Of a DNA stretch of 64,000 nucleotides, positions 1 to 63,165 are shown piece after piece (position 1 is the first letter of the stretch; each line of letters opens with the position of its first letter). Source of the stretch: Marsupella aquatica (taxonomy: Eukaryota > Plantae > Marchantiophyta); contig OZ316892.1 in NCBI GenBank assembly GCA_973895155.1, positions 27,862,307 through 27,926,306 on the forward strand, in the 5' to 3' direction. The notes under the pieces were generated by a model that worked only from the letters and a program-made list of their open reading frames with translations, was not told the origin of the DNA and searched no databases. Made by a program: the position numbers and the translations under genes.

Positions 1-222
1 TGTTGGCGATGGTGCCGTGATGGTGATCAATTACGCTACTGCGTTCAGCGATGTCGCGGCGTCCTGCTTTGCTAAGAGGCCACACCTGTCCCGTCTTCTT
101 TGCGTTCTGGAAAAGAAGGAACTCCGTTTCTTCGGTTCGCTCAAGAAAACAACGTGGGCGATGAGCGAATGCTCCTTATCTCGAAAAGAGCTGACAAATG
201 CTCCCCTTCTGTTGGAGGACGC

Positions 223-3088: not shown

Positions 3089-3393
3089 TAGGGTGGGGCG
3101 GGCACTACAGGAGAGCCATACATCGCATATGGCGTTTCAGGGTTTGACCCCCCTAAGTTATAAGTGATTTGTTTTTGCAACACCCTTGCTTTCTTTAAAT
3201 GTTGCCATTTTTTACTGAAGAACCCCTAAAAGATTTGAAGGAAGTATTTTTTGTTTGTTCTTTAAAGTCGACCAATCAATAAGGCATGTCCTATTTGTTA
3301 TTCAAAAAAACTTCCACCACACCCATTTACATGGGCCTAGACTTTGTCGCACATGACACCCCCCCCCCCAAAGGGCCCCATGACCCACTCTAA
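3089..3393 (+). mobile_element. Degenerate MITE related to the P-like element ends
   Basis: gccatacatcgcat...gggtttgacccccctaa...actttgtcgcac is shared with 49640-49963 and 29198-29528. TIRs are eroded and there is no clear TSD. Confidence 0.7.
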
Positions 3394-3680: not shown

Positions 3681-3945
3681 CGTAAGTAACCATTGAATCA
3701 GACTAGATAACAAATGCGAGATAACTCAATCATACACTACACTACACCGACGAAACATCACAAGTGGAGAAACTCCTTAAAGATCCATAGCATATAAGAG
3801 TACATGTTCTCCATCCAACCTATACCCCCCACGGGGGTTTTGATGTGCCAGCCTAAACTAAGTGGATCTTATCCTAATCTAACCAAGGGTTGACTATAGT
3901 AAGGCCAAACTGACTAAAGTTGGTAGCTTGAGTCAATTCCTAACA
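3681..3945 (-). mobile_element. LTR remnant, inverted copy of 14983-15279
   Basis: Minus strand starts TGTTAGGAATTGACT and shares ggccttacta, taggataagat, gggggtataggttgga and tgtttcgtcggtgtag with 14983-15279. No TSD seen. Confidence 0.7.
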
Positions 3946-4624
3946 ATCTGCTGCCAATTTGAAATGCACCGGGGCCATCAACAAGGATCAAGAGGCATCG
4001 ACACCATCTGTTGAGTTTGGCAAGGTGTGGAGCCAAACTTGCGGACCAAGGAAACATCTGGCACATGGGAGGCAACTTCTGGTTGGCAAGGAGGGCAGGT
4101 TTAGATACAGCACGACCTGATGGAGCTTTGGTGCCAAATTGTTTCAACCACACGTATAGCGCCTCGGGGGTCTCACTATATGGAGGACCCCCCCATCACC
4201 TGCGACATTTTCATGCCTAGACCCCCATACTTATTAAGTTGAAATTTTTTTTTCCTCTCCCTTTCTTTCTTCTAAGAGTCTAAAATCCAATTTGTATTGC
4301 CCCTATAATTTGTGAAGTAAAGTGTCACATATCAATAAAAAATGCCTAGAAAGAAAAGATAAGTCTGTGCCAGTACCTTGTGAAGTCGTATGTCAAACAT
4401 GGCAAGCCCTGCAACAGTTCTTGCACCTTTTTCGACCTCACACTTTCATCATTTCAATGCATCATTTATATTGTGTACCTAAAGGTCATCCCAATATTGT
4501 GTACATAAGTGGGATGGCCTTTAAGGTCACAACATGAATAATCCATTTCATCAACAATCAATTTGAAACCAATCACATACTCCATCCATACTCCATTGAA
4601 AACTTCTGCTGAGAGATGTAACAT

Positions 4625-4683
4625 GTGACGGAGGGGAATTGAACCCCTAATTGAGAAAGGATCTCAAGTTGCCAATCCGTCAC
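4625..4683 (-). ncRNA. 59-nt D-armless tRNA-like (mascRNA-like) structure
   Basis: Minus strand reads GTGACGG ATTGGCAAC TTGAGA TCCTT TCTCAA TT AGGGG TTCAATT CCCCT CCGTCAC A. This gives a 7-bp acceptor stem, a 6-bp hairpin and a 5-bp T stem with a TTCAATT loop, all Watson-Crick. Expression unknown. Confidence 0.6.
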
Positions 4684-4765
4684 CCCCTATCCTATCCCAC
4701 TACACCCACTAATATAAACAAAACATAATATATATACTCTCAAAAAGTAAACAGTAGCATAACAT

Positions 4766-7700
4766 TCATACCATTGTTTGAAGATACTGATCCAATGCAC
4801 GTCTATCTATTGGATCCAACACATAGATACGATCCATAACCCCTTCTTTCATGGTTAAGCTAACACTAGCAATGACCATTTCAATATCTATCCATTTCAA
4901 ATCAGTGGTATCATATCTGAATTCACTTTTGCTCTTACCAATAGGACTATACCAATTTAACAACAGTTCACAAATGCTACCTGATTGCCCTGCAAGTGGA
5001 GTGGGCCTATCCATCAAATCAATTGGTGTCCGACAATTGCTCCACCTACTACCATACTTTTGTCTCATTTGGACAATCCGACCCAACCAAAAATATTTAT
5101 TACCTGCTGAGATTGCCTCCACCGCAGCCTTATTCTTTCCTCCCTTTTTTTTCCAGATCTAGTACTTGGAGCAGGATTATCATCAGACTCAAATGCAATT
5201 GCACAATCAGTGCCAACATCAACAAAACATGAGTTAGGATTGGCTTCTTGCACTTTTCTCTTGCCAGTACTATAGTATAGCACTTGTTTCACCCTTGTCA
5301 GCCTATCTTTTGACAAATGTGGATTGCCTACCAGCTGGCTTACCAGAGTGGATTTGTAAATCACCTTGCCTTCATAAGTAACAGTAGGCACTACCTTGGT
5401 ATGATTCTGCACATTAGTTACAGCATGGACAACTGATCAACACATGCCGAACTTCATGGCCTAATGTCTCAAGCTCATCTGTGGGGTCTACATCAAACTG
5501 TATATCATCTCTATGTACATCATCTGAATGCATGTCAGGAATAACAATGGGATCTAGTTCTGTTAACCATGCATCTATTCTATTCAGATCATCCTCAGGA
5601 TCTTCCAATTCATGAAATCTCCAGTTGGGCGAGGCCCTATGTCTGGTGGTTGGTGCTCTACTTGCTCCTCAAAATCATTGCAAACAACTGCTTCCTTCAG
5701 AACCACCTCTAGTGGCCAGGTCTCACTTTCCACAACCCAAGGACATGTCCACCATCTCTTTCTAGCTGCTGGTAAGGAACTTCGTGGAGACATCTGCAAT
5801 TGATGCATAAGATCCTTAGCAGCAACAAAACCTTCTTTAAGGGCTGCAACCACTAATTCATTAGTCTCAATGAGAGAATAGTCAAGTAGATTTGGTGCTT
5901 CCTCCCCTTCCCCTATATGATGAATCTTCCCCCATACATGATCTTGCTTCTTATGTGAACGACCTATCTTCAAGCCTTCTGGTCCATATTCCAGGGCAGC
6001 AAGCCGGTTCAGTCCAACAACACTATCCAACAGAGAGCCAAAATCATAATTTCGCTCATGGCCACTCATGCCTCCTACCTTGCTGAAGAAAATCTCACAA
6101 CAATCCGAACCTAACAAGTGAAAGGGAACACCTAGATGTGGGAACTTATCTCGAAAGGCACAAATTAATAGCACAATGAAATGACATGACATGTTAACAT
6201 CATGAAAGGCCTTAATAGACATCATGTCTTTCTCAGTGTGTGCTCAAAGTTCCCACCCACTAAATGGTCACCAAACCTCAACCACAATCTCCACAAACGT
6301 AGAAAGAACGAAACCTTGGATGCTAACACAATACGGGACCTCAAGTCATGAACTGGAGAAAAGAAAATATCTAAGTAATCTGCACAAATCTCCAAGTACA
6401 ACTGAGTTCCTAAACTTCATTCATGTCGTACATCTCTCCTCTCATACATATCTTTCAGACATTGTTGCACTCTTCTTGCTGCTATTCGTTGTGGACCTGT
6501 CCAATTCTGCCGGTCAGTCCTATTCACATCATCCCAAGCCATGCCATGTTCATGAATTGGATAATGATTGTAGACATTAGCTACATAAGATAAAGATGCA
6601 TGTTGATCTCCTAGCACCAGTAAAGAAGACACTCTATCTAAGGGGTTTATCATCTTTTTCCCATTATGAGGTTGGTCTTGGTCACCAAAGCCATACAAAT
6701 CCCCATTTGGTAGAATTGAAACAGAGTAAGCCCACCCTTCCCACCCAACTCCGTACCTTGGGTATGATCCATTCTGCCCTCTGTAATCTTCCAACATCAA
6801 CTTTCGGCGACGTGCATCACCATCACTAGCATGTCCAAGCAAAGGGCCAACCATAGCTCTACAATGTTCATCCCAAAAAGCCTTTAACTGGACCCAATGC
6901 TCTCGTACCCAAGAAGTTGTGAACTTATTACAAGTTGGAAGTGCACACACAGCCAATTTAGGTAAGGACTCATGCAGAGGATTCACAATCACAACTCGAG
7001 CATACATGCACTTGGGGCATTGTTCAAATGTACTTACAATTTTATCATACCCCTCATCACCTTCACCAACTAGAATTTCCAAACCATAGGAGCATACATG
7101 CTGCTCTGAAGGTCCACAGAAACCAATGAGAGTATCATACTTTGCCTCCCACCTGAAACACAGACATGCAATTTTTCAATATCAGAGCAATTCCAGCCAA
7201 GTGCTACTTGTAAAGTCATTAAAAAAACGATTGGAAAAATGTCCAGTTCCAATTACCTAGGGCGTTCTTTGATCCTTGTTTCATCCTCAGCAAAGATAAC
7301 AGGCACATCCCCCTCAATGCCCAATGAGTGCTTTGCAGCAGACAACACTCTAGCAATCTCCTGAAAGGTTTCCTTCCGTAACCCAGTTCGAAAAGGTGTG
7401 AGTTTTGCTCTATCACGTTTTAGGGTCACAAGGCTAGGGGCTGTCAAGTTTCGTGCAAAACAATGAGCAACTTGACGGCCCCCAAATTGGAACATAGCCT
7501 GAGCAATAGCTCGAGTCCTATTACTGTAACGATTACCTTTTGGCTTCCTGCCTAAATTGCGAGCTACATCCTTCAAGAAATCCCACAAACCCTCCTTACC
7601 ACCAAATGCACCATTCTTGTGTCCATTCAAAATACTCCTAAGAAACAATCTCAAATCCTTCCTGTCTGCTGCAACTCCTAACAACTCCTCTAGTTTTCTT

Positions 7701-9330
7701 TTCCTGGTGCTCAAGGCACATACTTTCTGAGCCTGCAAAGCTAACAGCCAACGCTCTTTTCGTCGCACAGAGTTCAGCTCGTGCACTTGATCTCTTAACT
7801 CTAGGTTGGTCAAATAATCCAATCGTATACCACCAGCAGTGGTTCGGCTCCCTCTGTGGACTACTGCTTCCGCTTCCCTGTGCACCCGTCCACGAAAATC
7901 ATCTTCTAGTGTTATAGAATCACATTCACTACAAGTTAGATTTTCAAATCCTCCTCCATTTTGTGATAACCTCAAGCAATCCTTGTGTCTAAAACAGCCT
8001 GCTATACTCACAACACAGTCTCTTCTTGGATGGAAAACATCCAAGCAACAACTCGGCTCGCAATGCCATGTAATTCCCCCAGACTGATCATCCAAAATGC
8101 CGGAAATATCATAAGATATACCCTTCCATAACACTCGAGGCACACCTCTCTCTACCCATAATCCCCAGCAAAGCAAACTCAGACCAAGATCACAGATTCA
8201 CACACACCTGAACCTGAACTGCTGCCTGTTCGGGACCCATCATCTTTAAAGAACTTCAAAATCCCGCTCTGACCAGGATGTAGGTCCCTAGAATCAGTCC
8301 TCTTTGGCCTGCCCCTCTTCCCAGACCTCAAGGCAAGCATTTTTGTGTCATGCCTCGTCTCCAATGCATCCAAGTGATCTCGACTCACTAAGTGTGTCCT
8401 CAAATTGGGCTCCAAGGTAAGCTTCTTGGGGCACAAGTCAGTGTGAAGCATTCCACAAACAGTACAGCGAACCTTAAACAGGAAAGACATGTTTGCATAC
8501 TTAGGAGTACTGGGATCAGGAACAATAGAGAATAGTTTGCCATCATCCCCAAGCTCCGCATTCAATCGCTGAACTATCTCAACGCCTACTTTGATGGCGT
8601 CTGCATGATCATATTCTGGCTTCTCAGAGATGTCTGCTACCTGAACCAAAGTAGAAGGAATGCCCCTTCTCTGACAATAGTTATCCTTGTGCTTATTGAA
8701 GACCAAGTGTTTGGTTTTAAAATTACTAAAGCAATTGGAGATGGATTTAGGGTTCTGAGAGTTGCCTGCATTGCCATAAGTTTCCCTACATTCAAGACAC
8801 TCCAGATGCCCTCGAACATCTGTCCCCTCATCCCAGGTACGAATTCTCCAATTGTGATCACCATAACCCTTCTTATGTGCCCATTTCTCTAACCTCATCC
8901 ACTCATCTTTCCATAGCTTTGATGGAACATCTCCCATCAATTGTGACTCAAAAGAAGCCCTTACAGGGGAGGGTGCTGGTGCTGTTGGCCCCAGTTGTGG
9001 TGTCCCAGTATTCGGACCCAATGATGCAGGAGTGCAAGGATGACAGGGTACTGGTGGGATCCTCCCACCATCTCCAAGTTCTTGTTGTACAACAATAACT
9101 CTTCCATCCAGCTCAGACAGATCAATTAATTTCTCATGTACAGGTTTCACTCGACCAGGAAGTCTCTCATCCCAAAAATCAAAGTCAAAGTCTAGAGTAG
9201 AGCCAATACGAGCCCTAAAATCATGTAGGGTGTGTCCTTCTTTGAATGACAAAACACAGATTGGTAAATCAGCCTTGTCATCCCCAACTTTGCGTATTAA
9301 TTTCACAGAGTTGGGTTTAGGGGCTGCCAT
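4766..9330 (-). pseudogene. Decayed P-element/THAP9-like transposase
   Basis: Catalytic-type motifs in order: FAEDET (D1), ASDGD (D2), DQPHNGKK (D-x-x-H), DRQNW, SDCCEIFFS (E). N-terminus has two C2H2-like fingers (CLEC...H...H, CTVC...H...H) and a KRGRPKR AT-hook. GT-AG intron at 7256-7153. Disruptions: frame break at ~8180, TGA at 6417-6419, frame breaks near 6235, 5600, 5413 and 5120. Confidence 0.85.
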
Positions 9331-9825
9331 TGCAATACAAATCTAGAACATGCATAGCACAATTGCTTTTGGAGTCGATAACAAAAAGACCTGCACAAAT
9401 ACATTTGAAATACACACAATGCAAACACATTAGGATCTTCAAGAGATGCAATGACAACATACACATTCTCATGTAATATACATACTGTCAGCATACTTTT
9501 AACAAAAGAAGTGCTAATAGGCCAAAACACTTTATAATGCAATCCATCATACATGCAAATGTATTCAGTGAAAATCATGATATACCGTTAAAGTTGGATA
9601 AAATATCTTTGGACAAAATATCCTTTTCGCCTGGTTTTCTAATAGTTCCCGAGGTTTAGTGCTTCTGCTCATCAAAATGCAGCACTATTAGTGACCTTAA
9701 TTATGACAAAATGTCAACACTAATAAAATTGGGTACTACCACCCATGATGCAGCTTAAGTATTTGCCTTGCTCATACCCCACTACGACGTTGAAACCTAA
9801 GTAATAGGTTTGTTCATTATTCAGA

Positions 9826-10434
9826 TCACTGGAGCCATGAAATGTGGTCCCTGATTGGAGTCTTGAGGTGTGGATCAATAGGATGACGGGGGCAATAAAA
9901 CATCTGTCGCTGTTGTCCATGTGCTTCATGTTCCCAGATGTCCCTATCATGAGCAAACCCTTTGCTTTTGATCATCTGGAGACAATCTGTATGCCAGGCA
10001 TTTGGACATCGTAGACATTGTACCATGTTCTTGACCATCTGACCCTCAAGACTCTGATAACATGTCACACATGTATGCAGTGGGCAGGACTTTGCATCGG
10101 CTACCAAACACCCAAAGCAATAAAATCGTACACAAAAAATATCAGAGCATTTTTGCACAATTGTAGGTGACAGTCCCACAGTGCGGCACCCATAACACAT
10201 GGCCTGGTCCTGGTTACAATTTGGGCAAAACCATGGCTTCCCTCCATGATGGAGGGGAAGGACTACACAGGGGCAAGAGTCATTAGGGGCTTCATCTCCA
10301 ACCACATAATGAAATTGCCTGTGACATGGCCCATCACAAATTACCAACTTCCCACCGTGCTCACAAATTGCACAAACATGAGGGCTAGTTTGTAATCTCT
10401 TGCTCAGAGAACAACGGAATACGCAATACCTCTT
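9826..10434 (-). CDS. EDM2/NSD-type tandem PHD-finger cassette carried by the transposon (5' end possibly frameshifted)
   Basis: The frame is open from 10434: VCAICEHGGKLVICDGPCHRQFH...WFCPNC...CYGC...CPLHTCVTC...CLRCPNAWHTDCL...FYCPRHPIDPHLKTPIRDHI. This is co-linear with the EDM2 PHD region as recalled (VCAICDNGGEILCCEGSCLRSFH...CPLHKC...CRRCPKSYH...YCxxHEID...TPVRDHV). Confidence 0.75.
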   Translation of the reverse strand, partial: KRYCVFRCSLSKRLQTSPHVCAICEHGGKLVICDGPCHRQFHYVVGDEAPNDSCPCVVLPLHHGGKPWFCPNCNQDQAMCYGCRTVGLSPTIVQKCSDIFCVRFYCFGCLVADAKSCPLHTCVTCYQSLEGQMVKNMVQCLRCPNAWHTDCLQMIKSKGFAHDRDIWEHEAHGQQRQMFYCPRHPIDPHLKTPIRDHISWLQ

Positions 10435-10799
10435 CTAAAGAGGCTCCTTTGTTAGAGGACTGTGTTGCTTTCTTCATGTTTGAATTCCTTGTCGACATGG
10501 TTACAATTGCAATCATCACAAAGCACATCACATATGAGGGGGACATGTATGATAGTCGGCAATCCATAGACAAAGATAAGGTTAATCATAGCACCTACTC
10601 CAACGATCTGCAAACCTCCCTCCCAGATGAAGTCAACTACACAGTGCAACCTGAACACAGACCAACCAAGACATACATAAATACAATGCCAGCTTGCGAA
10701 ACTTGCCACATAACGGGAATGAAAAATATTCTCATATATCATGGATGGTACAATTGCAGCCTTGCAAACAAAGGCCTAGTCATATATGAACAACGCATC

Positions 10800-11040
10800 C
10801 ATGTACTATCAGGGACTACAATGTCAAGCATCCATGGGCTGTAACCTTAGCTTGATCTGGAATACTATCTGGGGCTACAATATCAAGCTCAGTTATATGT
10901 GGAATACTATCAGGGACTACAATGTCAAGCATCCATGGGTTGTAACCTTAATTTGATCTGGAATACTATCTGGGGCTACAATATCAAGCTCAGTTATATG
11001 TGGAATACTATCAGGGACTACAATGTCAAGCGTGTCTGGG
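10800..11040. repeat. Short tandem repeats (ggaatactatc...gctacaatRtcaagc) encoding IVxPDSIP units
   Basis: About five 39-nt-scale units within a ~117-bp higher-order duplication. They overlap the 3' part of ORF 10917-11315. Confidence 0.8.
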
Positions 11041-11315
11041 ATGACAATCTTGCGTAAAAGACACTCATTTTGAGGCCAAATGGTTGGCCTTATACAAGAG
11101 CACTTCCAGCGGCGTGTGACAACTTTGCCGTTCTTTGCCATGTATGTCCTAGTAACAAGTCTTACGCGCATTTTCAAGCAAAAGCAATGGAACCATTCAA
11201 AATTGCCATTGCCAACCCTGCACTTGACACAGGATTCACACCAGCAACATTCGTCTGGATGCTGCAAAAGGAGCTTCTCATAATTCTCCTCTAGGGTAAT
11301 CTTCAATATAGCCAT
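10917..11315 (-). CDS. Small ORF with a divergent PHD-like Cys/His finger
   Basis: CWC..CVKC...EWFHCFCL...WKCSC resembles the C4HC3 pattern and the ING-type EWFH motif. Spacing is atypical. Confidence 0.45.
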   Translation of the reverse strand: MAILKITLEENYEKLLLQHPDECCWCESCVKCRVGNGNFEWFHCFCLKMRVRLVTRTYMAKNGKVVTRRWKCSCIRPTIWPQNECLLRKIVIPDTLDIVVPDSIPHITELDIVAPDSIPDQIKVTTHGCLTL

Positions 11316-11899
11316 GACAGTGTTTTTTGTAATGATGAATTAACAATGTCTACAAGTAATCAGAATGGGGCAACACCTCAACTGCCTCTGCGTTCGACAG
11401 ACCTAAAGAATCTCACGTCTCCAGGCACCACACTTCAAAAAGAGTTTGATCCGCCCAGCAGCTCAACATCAACTCTGGTGAATAGAAGCAACATTGCCCA
11501 CATGTCAAAATTAACTTCATGGACTACATTAGAATTCCCCTACTACATTTGAAGCTAAATAAACTTCTGCACGACTAGAAATGGTTGAAGTCATGGATGG
11601 AAATGACACACCTAAAATTGAATACCAGCACAGGTCCCGTACTATACCTCAACTCAACATTTTAGCAGAGGTTGCAGCAGCATAAAGATAGCCAGGTGCT
11701 CCTCAACAGCCCCTTGCTTTGCCTGTACCCCTGCAACTACTTGAGGGTGAACTGAATCATTCAATAAGAACTATCCAGCAGCAAGTTCTGGTCAAAATTT
11801 CCCAACATGAACACACTTTCGCACAGAGATGTGTGACCTAGTCCTTACAAAATTGATAGCTAAGCAAAACAAGTTTCGATGTAGTGTCCAGAGCCTGGT

Positions 11900-14045
11900 C
11901 CAGACTAGTAAGCATGCAATTTTGGGACACAGTTGCCATAGAAACCCGCCCAGCTCAACCAAATTGTAGCACAACTCTGAACTCGATCGCAACCCACCTC
12001 GCAGCGCAAAGTACCAGGTCAAGTAATGTAGCTCAACGTAGCAACGTAGCTCAACAAGGGAAGCTCAGTCTCTCACCAATAGCTCTGAATCATAGCAGTT
12101 CAGCACCAGCCTCAATCGCAGCAACAATCCTCCAACAGCCTCAATCGCAACAGCAGTCCAAGAGCACTTGATTGCAGCAGCAGCGTAGCTCAGCTCCGGA
12201 CCAGATTGCAGGCAATGCAACTCACAGATTGCAACACAATGCAGCCCAGCTCAGGTCGCAGCCTAGTAACCAGATTGCAGCCCAACTCCCAACCCGATCG
12301 CAGCCCACCTTGTAGCCCACCTCGCAGCCCAACTGCAACTGATTGAAAGCACTTCATCTCAATCAGCAAAAAGTGAGAAGCACAAACAAAGCAAGAAACT
12401 TACTTCCTCTTGACTAAGCCTACGATTTGGAACATGACTTCAATCCATAGAAAGCCTGATTGTCAAAGCAAGAAATGAAGAGCACTCCCATACCAGAGTT
12501 GATAGAGCAACACTCCGTTTGAGCAAGCAGCGCAGCACTTGTAACCCTCACAGCGGAGCACTCTGACCCTAGCTTGCCTCCCTCACAGCGCAGCACTCAC
12601 CTCCTTCGTAGCGCAGCACTTCCCTTGATCATAGTGCAGCACTCACCTCTGTCGCCTCCCTCGTAGCGCCTCCCTCGCCTCCCTCACAACACAGCTTTGC
12701 CTCCCTTGTAGCGCCTCCCTTACAGCGTAGCTTTTGCCTCCCTCGTAGCGCCTCCCTTGTAGCGCCTCGCTCGCCTCCCTCACAGCACAACTTTCACCTC
12801 CCTCGCAATCCTCACAAAGCAATAGCTCTCGGCAGCAGTGCAGGAGTGGAACACTCAGCACTCACCATCCTCGGCTCCCTCGACTCCCTTGCAACAGCTC
12901 ATGGTGCTGCGCAACACTCGCTTTGGACCACACTCCCGTTAGCAGTGCAGGCAACACTCCCTTTGGAGTTTAAAAAAAATTACCGACATTGCTATATGGT
13001 CCACCAAGCTCCAGCCACCAAGCTCGGGAGCCTCTATCGATCGCTCCCAGCCTCCAGCTCGCGAGATCAGACAGCGAGCTTCCACCAAGCTCCAGCCACC
13101 AAGCTCCAGCCACCAAGCCAGCAGCCACCAAGCTCGTGAGCCTCTATCGATCGCTCCCAGCCTCCAGCTCCCAAGCCCAGCTCGCGAGATCAGACAGCGA
13201 GATCAAATTAGACGAGCAGCCCGATTCATAGCAGCCCACCTCGAAGCCCACCTCGCAGCCCCAACTCGCAACCACCTCGCAGCCCACCTTGCAGCCCATT
13301 ATCGATCAATAGAAACTATAGGTCAACATTGATCATAACCTACAACAGCCCGATTCATAGCACTTTGTCTGGATCAACACAAAGCAAGCAGTAAAAAACG
13401 AGCAGCACAAACCTGATCGCCAGCAACAGCTTTAGTAGCCCAAATCCATGCAGTAGCCCAGTGCTGCAAGCGCAGCTCAATGGAGCTCAGCGTAGTACGT
13501 GTAGCCCAGCTCAATGTGCACCTCAGCTCAATGCGCAGCCCAGCTCAATGCAGCCCAGCACAGCTCAGCTCTAGCTCGGATTGCAGCCCAGCTCAACCAG
13601 ATTGCAGCTCAACTCTAAACTCGATCGCAACCCACCTTGCAGCCCACTATCGATCAATAGAAATTGTAGCTCACATTGATCATAACCTACAGCAGCCCGA
13701 TTCATAGCACTTCGTCTTGATCAATACAAAGCAAGCAGCAAAAAGCAAGCAGCACAAACAAAAGAAAGGATGATTGTTGAAGCAAGCAAGATCGAGCACT
13801 CCCATACCTGAACTGAATAGAGCAGCAACTCTTTGAGCAAGCAGGCACGACTCCCGTTTGAGCAACCCTCACAGTGCAGCACCCCTGTGTGTGCAAGCAG
13901 CAATGGAGCACTTCGAGCGCACCTCCCGTTCAGGCCCCATTTCAGCAACCCTTGCAGCGCCGCGTACACTCCTATGTGTGCAAGCAGCAAGCACCAATGC
14001 AACACTCCCGTTAGCAGCGCAGCACTCCCGTTAGCAACTTAACAC
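11900..14045. repeat. Low-complexity gcagc/ctccc-rich repeat region inside the transposon
   Basis: Many internal duplications, e.g. cccagctcaacca...ctcgatcgcaacccacct at ~11950 and ~13586, and ccaccaagctccagccaccaagctc at ~13001 and ~13082. Confidence 0.8.
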
Positions 14046-14879
14046 TTCCCTTAGTTTGGACAAACAAGATGCTATGGAGGCATGCGAGGAACAAATTGGG
14101 CGCTAACCAGGGACATTCAAAATGGTCCCCCAAAAACCCTAAACATGGAGGCCGGGTACGAGTCGAAACCTGCCCCACTCTCGTACATACCCCATCCAAA
14201 ACTATTGCCATGTCTCAAATATGTAGACTACCCAATTGAGTACCCCCTAATTTGAAATGGGTGCCACATGTCCCAATCCGATGGTGACACGTGTATACCT
14301 TGTTTTCTCGTAAGATATTACCCTATCTTTCCTCAACCCATTCCGCGGACATTGAATCCCCCGCAAACAACCCTATCATTCTTTAAAGTGTATTTATGAT
14401 TATATTGACCCCTATTGTTCTTACACAAATCTTCTTAAGTCTTTCCTATAATCTAATAAAACGACCCTATACTTTCTCGCACGTGATGTGCCATTTTCGC
14501 GAAGTGAGACCCCTGAGTATAGCGCAACCGGTGGGAATTCTCTTAACTGCTCTTTGTTACTAATCTAGGTACAATAGGTTTGGTTTGGACAGGGTTAAAC
14601 CGGTGAGAGTGAGTTGAGATGCCCTGGGCTAGGTATGTTTGCACCCACACCAACAATCTATATTAAGGCATCTCAAACCTTGACGTTTGCGGAAAACTAC
14701 TTGGCCTGAAACTACCAGTTTCAGTCTCCCCTCCGAGCCTCTAACCTAATGGGTAGAGGCCCGAGGGCTTTGTCTGAATAAACGAAAAATAGATTAGCGA
14801 TACTAAGCTCGTGAGCAAATGACAGAGCTGCTCGGCAACTCTTCTTGTCAAGAGTGTCCGCCACTTACTTTCCGGGAAT

Positions 14880-15645
14880 CTACCTTTGACCACAACAGGA
14901 GGCAGAAAGAAGATATTTGAGTCTCTGTATTAGGCAACAAGGTGATGAGGCTGGGTATCACTGCCTTGTTTGGGCCACTAAGTGTTAGGAATTGACTTGA
15001 GTTCCCGACTTAGTTAGCTTGGCCTTACTAGGGTTAGTTAACCCTGGATTACATTAGGATAAGATATGCTTAGTTTAGGCCCACTCATCTTGGCCCCCTT
15101 GGGGGGTATAGGTTGGAGGGAGAGAACTCTCTCCCTCATTCTTCACATGTACTCTCATTTGTTATGGAGCTTTCAAGAGTTTCTCTACTCAGGGTGTTTC
15201 GTCGGTGTAGCGTCTGATTGAGTGAATCTCTCTCATGTTTCTGCATTGCTGTCTAGTCCGGAGCCGTCAGTATTTTACACTAAGACCATAGGTGTTTCCC
15301 ATTTGAAGGTTGCTTCTCACTTAGGTGGTAACCATTGAATGTTTATAGAATAGATCCATCTGGCATCAAGTGCAATCACTTCTTGAGATTTTGCTCCTTT
15401 GACTGCAACCCGAGGCAGAAAGAAGAGATTTGAGAGGCATCGTTTGGGTCACTGAGACCATAGGTGTTTCCCATCTGAAGGTTGCTTCTCACTTAGGTGG
15501 GTGTGGAGTGATAACCATAAACGCCTCGTTTGGGTCACTGAGACCATAGGTGTTTCTCACTTAGTGGGCCGTAGTGATAACCATAGACTGTTTAGAGAAA
15601 AAATTCCTCTGGCATCAAGTGTGAATCACTTTTGAGATTTTGCTC
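14880..15645. repeat. Locally duplicated unit gtttgggtcactgagaccataggtgtttc, interrupted by a solo LTR
   Basis: Unit at ~14968 (split by the LTR), ~15443 and ~15528. ggcagaaa.gaaga.atttgag also recurs. Confidence 0.7.
14983..15279 (+). mobile_element. Solo LTR, 297 bp
   Basis: TGTTAGG...TTTTACA ends with a perfect 5-bp TSD CTAAG (14978-14982 and 15280-15284). Confidence 0.85.
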
Positions 15646-17013: not shown

Positions 17014-20000
17014 TCAAATGCTAATTGTTCTATTCCTGTGTTGATTAAAGTTTTCCACATCCTTGCCAATTAACTTCTGAATTAAAGTCCCTCGTGAGAC
17101 GACGGATGAGGGAATGGAGAGGAGAGGTTGGAGTATTTGCTGACCTGTACGAATTCTTCCCGTGCTGAATGAGCGACGAACTCCAGAGGAACGGCTCTTC
17201 AAGTCTCCAGGGGTGGTAAAACTACCACCACCAGAAGGCCGAACATTGTCTTCTTCAACCTTCCTGCTTCTGCTTGTAGACAAGATAGGAGGGCCAACAA
17301 GTTCGTCGTCCCAGCCTGTGGCTACTACGTTCTCGTTTATCACAATTTTCTGAGGGGCAGGTTCCACGTTCTCCTTCTCATATCTGCAATACCCACCAGG
17401 AAGCGGAGGTGCACTCTCCTCAACCCACTTTCGGCATGACGACAACACCCCGATGATTCCCATTTCCTTCTCCCAGTCCAAACTCGTGTGGCACTTCAGT
17501 TGGCTGGCATTGCTACTTCTTGAGATGCTTCCCCTTGGAGCAATGTCTGGCGTCGTCCCCTTCGAGCCCTTGGAGTGCTTGAATGGGAACTGCTGTGCAT
17601 TACTATTTAGATCCTTCAACATTCTTAAAGAAAAATACGACGAAGATTCGGTTGAGGCAGCTGCAGGGCTACCTGAAGCGTGGCCGGTTGTTCTCTCTTT
17701 CGCCAGGGGTGCCACTACCTCTCGCTGATGAGATTTCCGCCCTGGTGGTAAGGGGAGCTCTTTTGATTGGGGAGCAGGTCTAGCACAAGAATTAGATTTA
17801 ATGACGGTCGATCGAGGCATCGGTGATGGCTTCCTCTTCCCTCTCGAGGGCAACCTTGAGATGAGAGATGGTAGAGACTTCCCGGGTGACAAATACGCCA
17901 ACTTCTGTCGAGTGGCATTCAGCCGTCTTGTGATGTCAGGCGAGATGGAGCGGCGACCCGCACTAACTGCCCGTCCAATTCGGTCCATGACCCTTCGAGT
18001 TGCTGATATTGAGCGAGGGGGTGACTTTGGCGGAGTACCAGCAACTGGCCGTTGCTGTTTCTCTGACGCAGGCCGTGCTCCACTAGGCGATGCTGGAGCG
18101 AATGCGGCATTGGAGAACAACACCGCCTTGCCTGATCTGGATCTAGTCAATTGCCAGGGCTTGTTGGGACCCTTGATCTCCGTGGCCTCCATGACGAATT
18201 TATGCCTCAGACTACCAATTAGAGGATGTGACCGGGCAGGTCGACAAGAATCCTTCACTGGTGTCTTCACCTGAGGAGTCGTGGGACCACTACAAGTTCT
18301 GGATTCTGGAATTGAGGAACTGAGGATGTTGAATCCTTCAAGGGCGGGTTCAAATAACTCATCCGGGGATGGATTGAACCTCTTAATTTCTGGACTTGCT
18401 GCCAAGGTAGCGCTCACTTGCTTGACATGTACTGGGCCTTCGGGTCGAGGGGATAGGACCAAAATCTCCACTGGCAATGCGGATGGGCAGGGATTGCACA
18501 TCTTAATTTCCGAAGTTGTTGCTGAGGAGGAGGGAGATCCTGGGGCACTTTCTACCTTGACATCAACCAACTCCTTGGCTCTGGATGAGAGGATCGAAGT
18601 GTCAGCTGGCAATGATGGTTGGCAAGTGCGCTTGACTGTCGATGTGGGAGCATCAGCTCTGGCGATTTCAGTGGAGTAGGTGGCCACCCTTGGTTCCATG
18701 CTCATATGGTGTAGTCCTTTGCTGCCCTGCATAATCGTGAAAGAAGGCTTGAGAGACCTACTGGATGTGCTGCTTAACTGAGGCTTCGCCACTAGCGTCC
18801 TAGGTGGAGATTTGGAGCTCCGAACTCGTCTCACTGTGTATGGCGCTTGCTTCTGAATGACTGGAACGACGACCTTCTTCGTTTCCGGACCTGGTGGTAC
18901 ACGAGGTTGAGACCTGCTATTAGTGACATCTTTGGCAGCCCAGCTGGCTACTTGGGGTTGATTTGACTTGCTGTTGGTGATCTCCTTGGCGGCCCACATA
19001 TCTACTTGAGGTTGCTCACGCTTGCTGTGGTTGATCTTCTCTTTGGCGGCCGTCAAATCTGCGAAACTTTGATTTGAATTGCTCTTCGTAGTATCTTTGG
19101 CTGCCCTCATGTTTGTTTGAAAATCATGAGACTTGACGTCGGTGATGTCTTTGGCTGCCCCAACATCTGCTAGAAATTGATGATGCTTTAAATTGGTGGT
19201 ATCCTGAGCGGCCCTCAGATCTGCTTGATTTTGGTGGGACTTGCTGTTGGTGATATCCTTAGCCACCCGAACATCTACTTGAGCTTGTCGAGACTTGCGG
19301 TTCGTGATATCTCTGGCTGACCACAAATCGTCCTGAGGTCTCGTTTCCTTCACTGCTGCACGAGGTGATCTGCGTGATTGCATTTTCTTCGCCGTGGATA
19401 ACGTCAATTCATTCTCATGTACCGGTCTTGAACGAACCGGGATCGGCTGTTTTGACTTGGGGTAGAGAACTTCCTTCCTGTTGCCAGCAGTAACGTGTTT
19501 CTTTGCAGGACCGTCGGACGATACTGCCAATCTGAACTTATGGAGGGGATCACCCTTCCTGATCTTTTGTTGCATTGCAGGATTCGTCATTGGGTTCGGC
19601 GATGTTGCGGTATCCTTGGTAGCCCTGCGACCCTTCTTCCCTTCATCCGAGCTGACATCGGATTGGATGATTGCTGCATTCACCATAGTTGTGATCTGCT
19701 TCGCAATCTGACTTGCCATGAGGATTTCTGAGATGACTTTGTGCACATCTCCTGCTGGAGATGACCAATGCTTCCATTCGCCTGAGCATCACAAGATCAG
19801 CAAGCAAGGTGTTACTTGTCCTGTCTCCACCTCAATCAACTAATTTCCCAATAGGAATCCCCGTGATCCAACTGACGAAGTGGTCCCTCAAAGCAAAAAG
19901 CGAAGGATGGGCGAAAACAGACAACACAAAACTCGTGCCAACAAAGTTCCTTCTTCCGAGACTCGTGATCCAACTGTCGGACTGCCACTCAAACACTACA

Positions 20001-29197: not shown

Positions 29198-29528
29198 CTA
29201 GGGGGGTCACTTACACGGAAGTGGCACATCACGTGTGACCAAGTATAGAGCCATTTAAATAGGTGTGACATAAGACTTCCAAAATTTTGTGTAAGAACAC
29301 ATGGGGTATATTTTATTGACTGGTCAACTCTAAAAGAAACACATAGACCTATTTAATTAAAATATATATATATGTTCTTTAAAGTTTTAAGGGATTTTTT
29401 AGTAAAAAATGATAAAATATAAAGAAATAAAGGGTTGTGCAAAAAATTATTTTTCACAATAAGTTAGGGGGGTCAAACACTAAAACATTGCACTCAATAT
29501 ATGGCCCTCCATATAGTGACCCCGCGAG
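29198..29528 (-). mobile_element. MITE related to the P-like element
   Basis: TIRs ctaggggggtcact and agtgaccccgcgag. Contains cactatatggagg and cacgtgatgtgcca as in the large element ends. Flanks tgagaact/tgacaatg (5/8 match). Confidence 0.8.
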
Positions 29529-49639: not shown

Positions 49640-49963
49640 CCGGGGGGGGTCACTATATGGAGGGCCATACATCGCATGCAATGTTTTAGGGTTTGACCCC
49701 CTAACTTATAAGTGGATTTTCCTTGCAAACCCTATTTTTGTTGAAAATTTGGCATTTTTTACTAAAAAAAAAACCCTACAAACTTTAAAGAAAATATTTT
49801 TTACAATTAAAATAGGCCTACTTTAAAGTTGACCAGTCAATAAAACATGTCGTGTGTATTTTTCCACAAAACTTTGGAAGTTTTTTGTCACACCCATTTA
49901 AATAAATAGGTCTATACTTTGTCGCACGTGATGTGCCACTTCTGTGGAAGTGACCCCTCCAAG
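49640..49963 (+). mobile_element. MITE related to the P-like element
   Basis: ggggggtcactatatggaggg...gtcgcacgtgatgtgccact...gaagtgacccc, similar throughout to 29198-29528. No TSD recognised. Confidence 0.8.
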
Positions 49964-55563: not shown

Positions 55564-55956
55564 TTGAATGACTTATTCTCACAATTCCCACAACTAGATC
55601 ATTAACATAAGCAAAAGTTGAGTGATATTTTAGGAATACAGAAAAAGTAAAATAATGAAATGGATGGAAAATTAAAAGCCATCCAACAATTTATTGGCAT
55701 GCAATTTTTCTTACATTTAGGGGGTTCGAGCCATGCAATATATTAGATTCCGTATACAATTTCCATTCTATAAGACAATCTTTTACTTTGTTTTACAATT
55801 TCCATTTCATAAGACAGTTTTTAATCTATTTTTATACGTGAAAACCATTTTCTCTCTTTAAGAGTTTCCTAGATTTTTGGTATTTCCCATAATCCCCCCT
55901 CCCCCCCCCCCATGGTATTAATTTTTATTTAAGGAAAATACATTTCAAGGAAAATG

Positions 55957-56251
55957 CTGGGGGTTTCACTTCCACAAAATGGAACATCACATGCAACGAA
56001 ACATAAAGTGATTTTATTGGTTCTAAGAAAAAACTTAAGAATTTTCTCAAAAGAACAATACGATATTTTTAATATAATTTTGAGACTTATAAGAGCATTA
56101 GGGTATTTTTAATGAGAATTTTAGAATATTCCAAGAATATTCCAACTTTATAGGGATTTAAAAATAATACATTTTTCTTACATTTAGGGGGTTCGAGGCC
56201 TAAAAATGTTGTAGGTGAAGGGGGAGGCCTCCACATAGTGAGACCCCAGAG
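55957..56251 (-). mobile_element. MITE: internal-deletion derivative of the 4163-14517 element family
   Basis: Minus strand starts ctctggggtctcactatgtggagg...tcacct.c.acattt like 4163 onward, and ends like 14370-14517. TSD ggaaaatg/gggaaatg (7/8 match). Confidence 0.85.
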
Positions 56252-56687
56252 GGGAAATGATTTCATGAATGATCATTTTGTCAATCATTTCTATTAATAC
56301 TAGCCCAATTACTTGTTCCTTGAACATATAAAGCAAAACATTCTTGCACAAAAACAATTCTATGTTATTTAGGTTCTAACTTTGCTCCATCCTTGTTTTT
56401 TGTCCACCTTCATTTCAGTTTTGTCTTTATGTAGAGTCAATGTCACTTTTGTTATCTTTGCCCCATCCTTGTGTTTTGTTCACCCTCATTTTAAGTTAAG
56501 TGATTTTAAGAGATGTATACCAGAGACTCATGATCAGTTTTGTATGTATTGAGAGTGATGGTATAGAGGCTTCACTCTAGACCATAAACCTTAAAAGTGG
56601 TTTCCCTTTCCCTTCACAAATTATTATTAGTAAGATTCAAAGAACAGGCATTTAGGCTCATGTTGGTTAAAGTTCCGGCATGCACGT

Positions 56688-60400: not shown

Positions 60401-63165
60401 TTAGTGGTTCTATTGGTAGTGCGCAGGGAGATCAAATGAACCTTGAGCTCACATTTGCTGTATGCTTCAACTTGGGTTGCCAGTATCACAACAGCGGCCA
60501 GCAAGCTGAAGCCTTGAGCACCTACTCCCAGATTGTTAGAAATAAGCAGGTTTGAAAATGCTTTCTCTGTCATAGCTGTCCCCTTACTTTGGCTTCTTAA
60601 CAAAAAAATTCTTCATGTTTGAATGTTATCTTCTGTAAAGGAGTTGTCCCGCTAAGAACTCTGGAGGATGTCTGTCTTTGTAGTTTACTCACGATGGACG
60701 GTTGAGAATCAACATGGGGAACATTTACTATGAGCAGCAGAAATACACTCTGGCAGTGAAAATGTACCGCATTGCTTTGGATGAGACTTCCAACATGTAC
60801 AAAGGAGTCCGGTACAGAATCATGCGCAATATTGGAAACACTCTCATGAAGCTTGGCCGGTATCAGGTTACTTCAACTATCTGCTACTGAATTTGGAGCA
60901 CAGTCAAATTTAAGTAATATTGGAACTTGCCATATCAGAGTGCCCCATTTTGCAACTCTTGTCCATAGTACTTTTGTAAGCTTTAAATTAAAGTCCTAAA
61001 CTTTCCAGATAAGATTTAGGTAGAGACAATGATCTACTTGAGGTCGGTGGCTGGGATACAGGATGCAGCTCAATCCTATGAAGATGTCATTGAAATAAAG
61101 GTGGACCATCAAACTTGTTACAATTTGATTGTATGTTATTACATACTGGGCCATTGTGAGAAGATGAAGAGTGTGTTCACAAAAATGTTGCTTGTGAAGC
61201 ACTATAACTCCGACTCAGATGATGACATTGATGGGGACCATACTGCTGTTCTTAAGGTCTGTGTTTGAACTTCATTTCTATTGATTTAGAAGCATGTTCT
61301 CTATTAGATAGGATTAAAGTTGAAAATCCTGGGTGAAGTAAATGTATTAGTTCAAATGTATCCAACAAGTGACAATCACCGATGTCCAACCAAATGTGGA
61401 ACCAAACAGAATGATGTGCTTCGAGAGGAACTCCGCAGTAGACAAAACAGGGCAAACAAATACATCTTCACTGCTGCTAGACTCATAGCTCCTGTTCTTG
61501 GCGAGACTTTCTTTGAGGGATACGACTCCTTGATCGAAATGTTGAAAGATCAAGAATACCTTGCTCTTGCAATTGAGATGGAAATGGAAAAGGCCATGCA
61601 ACATCTTCGTAGACAGGACTTTGGACAGGTTTGACCAAATTTGGTTGTGTTCAGTTTGGATAGAAAGCTATTTTCAATCTCAAGTTTCTGTCAACATTTA
61701 CCAGCTTGCCACCACTAGTAGGTCTCTCATAAGCATCCTGAAGACACCTATTAAACAATCTGCAACTTTGGAAGGGAAGACAAACGGAGCTAATATATGT
61801 TGTATCTATTGTTGAGACTTATTGTAATGAGGATAACACACCGGTGACCATGTAGGCAGTCTCATTATTAAAGAACTTTGAGAAGAAGGAGAAGGACCTC
61901 AAAGCTCGTGCTGCAACAAATCTGTCTTTCATCTACTTTCTTGAGGGTGACGTTGCCAATGCAGAAAAACATGCGGAGCTTGCTGTGAAGACAAATCGAT
62001 ATAACTCATCTGCTCTAGTTAACCATGGGAATTGCTTTTTCTCACGGGGAGATATGGAGGGTGCCATTTCAGTGTACAGAGAGGCAGTGGAAGTTGAGGC
62101 AGACTTTGTCGAAGCAATCTACAACATTGGGCTCTCCTATAAAAGGCTTGGTTCATTGGTAGAGGCATTGTGCACATTCAAGAAGCTTAGCAATCTACTG
62201 CCTAACAATGTTGAGGTTTTGTTCCAAATTGGGCATGTGAATGAGATGATGGGCAATTATCAACAGGCCATTAAATGGCTTGAGATTGTCAATACACGGG
62301 TGCTGCATGATTCGGAAGTACTAGCCATGCTAGGAGGCTTGTACTACAAGTTAGATGATGAGCCGAAAGCCTTGCATTACTATATTGAGTCCCATAGAGC
62401 TTACCCCACAAACATGGACATCACTTCATGGCTCGGGGCGTTTTACGTCAAAAATGAGGTCTACGAAAAGGCTATGCCTTACTTTGTGCTAGCATCCAAA
62501 GTCCAGCCATCTGAGGTCCGATTCGATTACAACATGCCACTCCAAGTTCTACATGCAAATGATTACTGTTTCCTCTGACAAATGCTCAGACAAAGATTGC
62601 TTCACTTTCACTTGAATTGTGTGAGCCTTGAATACCAGAAAGGTTTTCCTGATAAATCTCTCCTCCCGTGCCCTCAATTAATCACTCATTAGTTTGATGT
62701 GCTGAACAGGTCAAATGGCAGCTGATGGTGGCATCTTGCTTCCGGAGAACAGGACAGTACAAGTTGGCCCTTGCCAAGTACAAAGCCATACTTGCAAAGA
62801 ACCCAGAGAATGTGGAGTGTCTGAGATACTTGGTACACATGTGCACTAGCCTTGGGAGAAAGGAGGAGCTAACACACTACATGTCCAGGCTTCGAACTGC
62901 AGAGAGTCAAGCCCAACAACACTCCAGGGCTGACAAACAGGACGGTGGATCAGGGAAAATTTCCACCACACAGCACAAAGGAAACTTAGCTAGAAAGAAT
63001 CATGACAACAGAGGGGGGAGCACACAAGATAACCTGGAGCCAGCCTCTTCATCTGGGCCCCTAGTGTCTCTCCAAAGACCTGGTCAAAGAATGATTTCTG
63101 TTAGAAAATACAGCTCTGCTGAGGTAGAGTGGCCAGAACTGGGTGACGACCTTTTGCCCATGTAG
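57410..63165 (+). CDS. IFT88: Intraflagellar transport protein 88 (TPR protein), multi-exon; start could be 57410, 57425 or 57467
   Basis: Motifs GDDDLYEGYNDFD, ARPMTAVRAAGYSS, RFDPLNQG, ALEKAKEAGKKER, GRLRINMGNIYYEQQKY, KARAATNLSFIYFLEG, NRYNSSALVNHGN and VKWQLMVASCFRRTG, ending WPELGDDLLPM*. Confidence 0.95.

Follow-up and report, generated by a model that had tools for sequence, protein, structure and literature searches.

A triple-PHD gene of EDM2 origin in a P-type DNA transposon family of the liverwort Marsupella aquatica

Why would a DNA transposon carry a gene that resembles a plant chromatin reader, and is such a gene kept by the element or picked up as a passenger? The question is raised by a 202-codon stop-to-stop frame on the minus strand at 9826–10434, found in the open reading frame list of the 64-kb window (the whole stretch of DNA that was analysed). 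The first-pass annotation described it as a stop-free cassette of about 200 codons, rich in Cys and His, that reproduces the PHD region of EDM2. The cassette is real: it matches PHDvar_NSD in Pfam above the cut-off (E = 4.9e-08), with PHD-1st_NSD, PHD and PHD_NSD matching below their cut-offs, and it matches NSD2 in the PDB (E = 2.7e-05; profile search, E = 1.4e-09). Its 202 codons are indeed open, but the first 14 or so are not part of the real protein: the gene begins upstream and is disrupted in the window copy by a 2-base deletion near 10393. Since the family contigs of public runs lack the ATG at 10477, the ATG at 10498 is the likely start of a single-exon gene (9826–10498, minus strand) of about 224 residues in intact copies, a length within the size range of the homologs (213–245 residues for most). 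The copy in the window is a pseudogene.

The gene encodes three PHD fingers, of the C4HC3, C7H and C4HC2H types, and all 24 zinc ligands are present in the window copy, where nearly all had been claimed. Finger 1 (C4HC3; 10216–10374) lacks the acidic residues found ahead of it in host EDM2-like proteins, finger 2 (10075–10197) has a Cys rather than a His as its fifth ligand and a spacer cut to 7 residues, and finger 3 (C4HC2H; 9883–10071) is followed by an EDM2-type IDxxLxTPxRDHI motif and then by the stop (all on the minus strand). The C-terminus reads HPIDPHLKTPIRDHISWLQ-stop, with the counterpart HEIDEDMGTPIRDHISF in P0128, a protein named EDM2-like. This closing motif is also the end of the PHD module in EDM2 and EDM2-like proteins of Selaginella, pea and mango, and the description of an EDM2 PHD region running through to its terminal motif and stopping there was therefore accurate. 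The closest homolog, P0001 (80% identical), extends upstream in a different frame. An AlphaFold model of the PHD protein has a mean pLDDT of 37, which is too low for use in a check for the aromatic cage that marks H3K4me3-reading PHD fingers of the ING and RAG2 type.

The gene lies in a P-type DNA transposon of 10,355 bp (about 10.4 kb; 4163–14517, minus strand), a disabled copy of a multicopy family, as seen from its terminal inverted repeats (TIRs), its target-site duplication (TSD), contig depth and differences shared in public runs. The 8 bp sequence TATAGCGC occurs in the 64-kb window only at 4155 and 14518. These two perfect copies (4155–4162 and 14518–14525) stand directly outside 14 bp inverted repeats (4163–4176, plus strand; 14504–14517, minus strand; 13 of 14 positions matching) and thus define the bounds of the element. 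The TIRs start with CTC(A/G)GGGG. We read the TSD as a perfect 8 bp repeat with symmetric ends, the alternative being one of 9–10 bp with shifted ends. The cassette had rightly been placed inside TIRs, but only the 14 bp repeats are those of its transposon; the conspicuous repeats of about 200 bp belong to an outer, non-autonomous element of approximately 1.1 kb (about 1110 bp). The insertion of the P-type element has split this outer element into a left part (3740–4154), with an inverted repeat of about 200 bp beginning CACTAC, and a right part (14526–15212), and the PHD ORF is enclosed by both elements. We rejected the CACTA-like repeats (3740, 15212) as the ends of the P-type element because they show no 2–3 bp TSD, are about 72% identical, have a much higher depth and hold the 8 bp TSD inside them. 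They begin CACTAC/CGCTAC and are very abundant in the public runs X2, X3 and X5, in which the summed depth is very high at 14642–15575.

Compared with the main family contigs, the window copy has 31 differences over 2207 bases in X3 and 82 over 3515 in X5 and is therefore fairly young. The observed/expected CpG ratio is 0.28–0.31 in the element, compared with 0.66–0.72 in two neighbouring genes, and this depletion indicates that copies have been methylated for long. Within the element, a 101 bp tandem duplication at 10804–11005 is missing from the X3 and X5 contigs. The interior at 11900–14100 is GC-richer and repeat-rich, and its depth in the public runs is low and patchy, so this region appears to be variable between subfamilies. 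Four MITE-like elements of about 300 bp (3095–3356, 29200–29523, 49643–49957 and 55960–56252) have both ends resembling those of the P-type element; by eye, the repeat flanking the copy near 55950–56250 matches at 7 of 8 positions.

The transposase gene occupies 4766–9330 on the minus strand. Its ATG at 9330 is 496 bp downstream of the PHD stop on the same strand, in agreement with the co-oriented cassette about 500 bp upstream of a transposase that had been proposed. The transposase of the window copy is broken by a stop at 6417 and by frameshifts near 8191, 6244, 5614, 5438 and 5144; many other family members are free of these frameshifts, while the stop falls outside the sites listed. An intron of 104 nt (7153–7256, minus strand) is predicted from GT–AG splice sites read from the sequence, and homologs are continuous across it. 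Homologous transposases measure 1423–1529 residues. The matches are to proteins annotated as hypothetical in Riccia, Calypogeia and Adiantum, to numerous metagenome proteins, the longest of 1529 residues, and to distant animal proteins, one of which has PF21787. In alignment A3 the SDGD motif is present in 36 of 36 rows and DxxH in 34, together with EDET and CExFF, and the window transposase has these motifs too.

Sequence-profile searches of the PDB with the transposase returned nothing, and its placement comes only from a fold search, made on a model of the homolog P0037 (45% identical to the core of the window transposase) and not on the window's own broken protein. The AlphaFold model of P0037 (mean pLDDT 78) best matches the Drosophila P-element transposase (PDB entries 6P5A and 6PE2; Foldseek E = 1e-9, target TM 0.69), and these two entries are the only matches below 0.001; RAG1 (E = 3e-3) and Transib come next. 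Language-model look-alike clusters of the transposase contain PF21787 and PF21788 at low shares, PF21788 (GBD) being found in only 15% of the cluster members. P-element superfamily members transpose in a GTP-dependent manner with staggered cuts and have an RNase H transposase with insertion domains, a DDE triad with DxxH, a TSD of 7–8 bp and short TIRs starting 5′-CA; an N-terminal THAP DNA-binding domain is typical of them, albeit not universal. From the P0037 fold match, the DxxH motif and the 8 bp TSD, the transposase is assigned to the P type, although the ends of the element begin CTC and no THAP domain is detected: Pfam gives no THAP match in the transposase, in the N-terminal part of which two C2H2-like motifs can be seen by eye. 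The likeness to the Drosophila P transposase and THAP9 thus lies in the fold of P0037, the PF21787/PF21788 look-alikes, DxxH, the 8 bp TSD and the short TIRs. On the other hand, identity to Drosophila P is only 11–12%, the transposases are about 1420–1530 residues long, the ends of the liverwort element begin CTC and not CA, the hosts are liverworts and a fern, and a separate PHD gene is carried. A C-terminal domain of the transposase (4769–5100, minus strand) is conserved in 14 of 50 homologs and looks BAH-like by eye; this identity was dropped, having no PDB or Pfam support.

As the window copy is a pseudogene, we may ask whether the PHD gene is intact elsewhere in the family. Copies were judged from the contigs of public runs, six of which contain the family; they come from four studies and three organisms, and one is possibly the window's own source. 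In all six, contigs free of the 2-base deletion near 10393 account for most of the depth or for the whole of it (2169 of 2422 in X2, 6789 of 11007 in X4, and all of it in X1, X3, X5 and X6). That other copies keep the ORF was a check named beforehand, and with the gene intact in six of six such runs a frame present in this copy only is excluded. The PHD contigs are also roughly as deep as the transposase contigs, about 20–45 times the unique flank, where summed contig depth gives rough ratios and not copy number. In X3 the depths are 1636 for the PHD contig, 1999–2162 for the transposase contigs and 36.5 for a near-identical flank contig, and in X5 they are 81–99 (plus a subfamily at 41), 115–130 and 5, respectively; in X6, high depth at 10294–10347 reflects short partial matches and was excluded. 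One X5 contig of 3525 bases extends between 6245, within the transposase, and 9761, in the spacer, beyond which overlapping contigs take in the PHD stop and the body of the gene; no single contig in the public runs spans both the PHD gene and the transposase. It should be noted that the linkage of the two genes is seen in the window's family only.

A second subfamily, diverged by about 12% over part of the ORF, keeps the PHD frame, as does the first, and both keep the ligands at the listed sites. Among 11 listed of its 16 own sites there are 4 synonymous and 7 non-synonymous changes, a ratio in which silent changes are not clearly in excess among close subfamilies, and none of the changes at listed sites falls at a ligand. 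The public-run contigs support a PHD gene that is a stable part of a multicopy family and intact in other copies, and the view of the PHD ORF as a maintained gene of the window's transposon family is well supported.

We then looked at where the gene comes from. A word search gave 8 relatives, and a profile search gave 546 proteins at E ≤ 0.001, with short standalone proteins (190–245 residues) ranking best and EDM2-like host proteins following. A careful tree places all 13 standalone rows on one branch (100/100), and in a quick tree of 138 rows 15 standalone rows group together (98); 26 of 164 profile hits, in which the whole module was not covered, were left out of the trees, and the careful trees were built from 46 and 29 chosen rows. 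A phylogeny against the PHDs of host EDM2 thus sets the standalone proteins apart as a separate clade. The window PHD protein is 40–82% identical to members of this clade and 30–39% identical to 33 host-type modules, which excludes near-identity to a host EDM2 gene. All 24 zinc ligands are found in 10 of 14 homologs and 21–23 in the rest, and the stop comes 0–10 residues past the last motif in all 14. At the fifth ligand position of PHD2, all 15 standalone proteins have Cys where 113 of 123 hosts have His, and the PHD2 spacer is 7 residues long in the clade compared with a host median of 27.

The module shares with those of Arabidopsis EDM2, plant EDM2-like proteins and PHD1–3 of NSD1/NSD2 its three-finger build, a C4HC2H last finger, as described for EDM2 (PMC3776765), and the terminal IDxxLxTPxRDHI motif. 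Unlike EDM2, the transposon gene is standalone, of about 224 residues and a single exon, is 30–39% identical, has lost the acidic patch before PHD1 and shows the His-to-Cys change and short spacer in PHD2. It ends right after the module and has none of the RFD, acidic, PGR and ELP methyltransferase-like domains described around the PHD module of EDM2 (PMC7529245); the host EDM2-like proteins carry DNMT1-RFD. An EDM2 origin of the PHD gene is supported by these comparisons, as is the reading of the standalone proteins as one old clade and not as a recent capture of host EDM2. When the 16 residues upstream are added to the tree, the clade joins liverwort EDM2-like paralogs which likewise terminate shortly past the module (93/91, not starred); a grouping with canonical liverwort EDM2 is not rejected by the AU test (p = 0.093). 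The short EDM2-like paralog clade is a possible donor of the transposon gene. Its members P0067, P0068, P0070, P0071, P0095 and P0098 are without the long C-terminal part of EDM2, and five of them are named from Marchantia, Riccia and Calypogeia.

Between the window PHD gene and the loci L001 (1.9 kb) and L002 (1.5 kb), pN is 0.34–0.37 and pS is 0.66–0.88, a pN well below pS that indicates long-term constraint. Both loci are damaged, and neither has a transposase within its short flanks. The first-pass annotation had argued for selection inside the element as opposed to recent capture. Age is borne out by the separate clade and the 30–39% identity to hosts, and constraint over long distances by the pN below pS; selection is less evident nearby, with a pseudogene in the window and a 4:7 ratio among close subfamilies. 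As expected of repeat-masked genes, no plant gene name is attached to any of the standalone proteins looked up, and their sources are only metagenome and raw-read assemblies, whereas host EDM2-like relatives are named in the proteomes of Marchantia, Riccia, Calypogeia, Selaginella and angiosperms. In viral contigs, 29 pattern matches yielded no relative.

The binding surface bears on whether the mark reading of EDM2 carries over to the clade. EDM2 is reported to bind H3K9me2-marked chromatin (PMC7529245), and PHD fingers that read unmodified H3K4, those of the AIRE, BHC80 and CHD4 type serving as our comparison class, carry acidic residues immediately ahead of the first Cys (PMC3241642). An acidic residue before PHD1 is found in none of the 19 members of the standalone clade, compared with 107 of the 112 matched host rows (11 of the 123 host rows were not matched by the pattern). 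SPH or AAH occupies this position in the clade, and the 16 residues upstream of PHD1 contain a median of 2 acidic residues compared with 8 in hosts. With these residues lost, the mark specificity of EDM2 cannot be transferred to the PHD protein, and judging from the residues the clade may have lost canonical H3-tail reading altogether. The standalone proteins have basic N-termini; in 11 of 19 homologs an ARxK close to the first residue resembles the beginning of the histone H3 tail, but it is missing from the window's family. This N-terminus could be a histone mimic or merely a nuclear signal. Among those that have it are P0006 (with ARPK), P0074 (with ARTK), P0008, P0064 and P0066.

What might such a gene do for the transposon? 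We favour, with a probability of about 0.4, a reading in which a plant P-type family has the PHD ORF as its second gene, encoding a chromatin-binding helper that would bring the transposase onto chromatin in a RAG2-like manner. A spliced or intron-poor copy of the EDM2 PHD module, probably from a bryophyte EDM2-like paralog, would have been captured long ago, and the flanking RFD and methyltransferase-like domains would have been dropped. The basic N-terminus likely takes the protein to the nucleus, the remodelled histone-binding surface of PHD1 likely reads something other than the mark of EDM2, and the protein would bring the transposase onto chromatin much as RAG2 does for RAG1. This role as an adaptor is drawn from analogy with RAG2 and with PHD-bearing transposases. 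In RAG1–RAG2 and ProtoRAG, too, a transposase of related fold is paired with a PHD finger encoded by a distinct gene next to it. RAG2, which is oriented convergently with RAG1, combines a Kelch domain with a single PHD that reads H3K4me3, whereas the window element has three EDM2-type fingers on the same strand as the transposase. The reading of H3K4me3 by the RAG2 PHD is reported in PMC3241642. A fuller history, which we put forward tentatively and consider doubtful as a whole, would have an old P-type lineage of early land plants taking the EDM2 reader module, remodelling its surface and using it as a transposase adaptor or as a decoy for the EDM2 complex, the RAG2-like partnership having arisen independently and some members having gained an H3-tail-like N-terminus.

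The retained module can also be read as directed against silencing. The PHD protein could mimic the EDM2 module, occupying the heterochromatin of the element or competing for ASI1 and AIPP1/EDM3, and thereby favour full-length transposase transcripts or weaken silencing, as an anti-silencing factor or decoy like VANC. A PHD module retained with all other domains gone is the usual dominant-negative build, and the H3-tail-like ARxK in 11 of the 19 standalone homologs would fit. VANC offers a precedent (PMC13317346; PMC6446971), and EDM2 is described as suppressing premature polyadenylation, binding H3K9me2-marked chromatin and controlling transposon silencing (PMC7529245). However, at 30–39% identity to host modules, with a short PHD2 and a remodelled PHD1, the protein would be a poor mimic, the CpG depletion of the element (0.28–0.31) indicates long-methylated copies and the window's family has no ARxK start; we regard an anti-silencing or decoy role as only slightly less probable than the adaptor role. 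VANC (Vandal/Hiun Mutator), MudrB and the Myb/SANT partners of Harbinger are alike in being second genes kept in a DNA transposon for its own benefit, but they belong to other superfamilies and have no sequence relation to the PHD gene, and VANC is reported to recognize DNA motifs (PMC13317346).

The adaptor reading has also to be set against two others, in which the gene is not a helper of its own. A member of a family of small, free-standing PHD genes of early land plants could have been picked up by the window's transposon family and amplified with it, the long-range conservation then coming from selection on host genes. No transposase lies beside L001 or L002, close subfamilies show no silent-change excess, and the likely sister group comprises liverwort host paralogs whose sequence, too, stops directly behind the module (93/91, not starred). 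Yet two subfamilies about 12% apart both keep the frame and the ligands at listed sites, the standalone proteins come only from metagenome or raw-read assemblies while their host relatives are named in plant proteomes, and damaged copies (in the window, L001 and L002) are common, as for transposon genes. Such a passenger seems improbable to us. It is still harder to see the ORF as an exon spliced onto the transposase to give a PHD–transposase fusion, although both lie on the same strand 496 bp apart, the transposase ATG is preceded at 12 bases by an in-frame AG, the ORF contains GT sites and PHD-bearing transposases exist (Rehavkus). The stop falls at a conserved position in all 14 standalone homologs, and none of 50 transposase homologs, including a 1529-residue protein of an annotated Calypogeia genome, has a PHD module. 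A search for longer homologs from the PHD alignment drew a blank among 1126 candidates; this is weak evidence and uninformative, the profile search having found full-length EDM2-like proteins. We consider a fusion very improbable.

DNA transposons with helper genes, and transposons with PHD fingers, are already known. AcademHP is a PHD-bearing transposon; there and in Rehavkus one finger forms a fusion with the transposase or helicase, whereas the module here is free, triple and of plant EDM2 origin. Rehavkus transposases are reported to carry a PHD (PMC6446971). In the literature, covered mostly at the level of listings and with Repbase and closed journals outside its scope, we found neither a P-type transposon nor a plant DNA transposon described as carrying a PHD helper gene, and no bryophyte P elements. 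The same coverage gave no description of a free EDM2-derived triple-PHD gene in a transposon, or of a P-type element with TIRs, an 8 bp TSD and the P fold in land plants. Pfam misses these P-type transposases, so annotations likely leave them as unknown repeats. Target choice and escape from silencing are known for very few plant DNA transposons, with VANC as the main case, and here a small standalone reader derived from EDM2, carried by a young multicopy family, offers a direct test. If the PHD protein directs where the element inserts, it might serve as a component for targeted integration in bryophyte models.

Other frames in the window may be mentioned. Between the PHD gene and the upstream end of the element, a third co-oriented Cys-rich open frame (10917–11318, minus strand) has EWFHCFC and WKCSC motifs and is PHD-like by eye; it has no Pfam match, the best, YNG1, being non-significant (E = 0.53), and the depth over it is similar to that of the remainder of the element. 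Outside the element, TPR-rich exons at 61856–63165 (plus strand) presumably belong to an IFT88-like gene, which they resemble, and point to a plant with flagellate sperm; together with the liverwort homologs, this gene suggests that the host is a spore plant. A 924-codon low-complexity frame at 17014–19788 (minus strand) contains eight 54-nt repeats and has no Pfam match.
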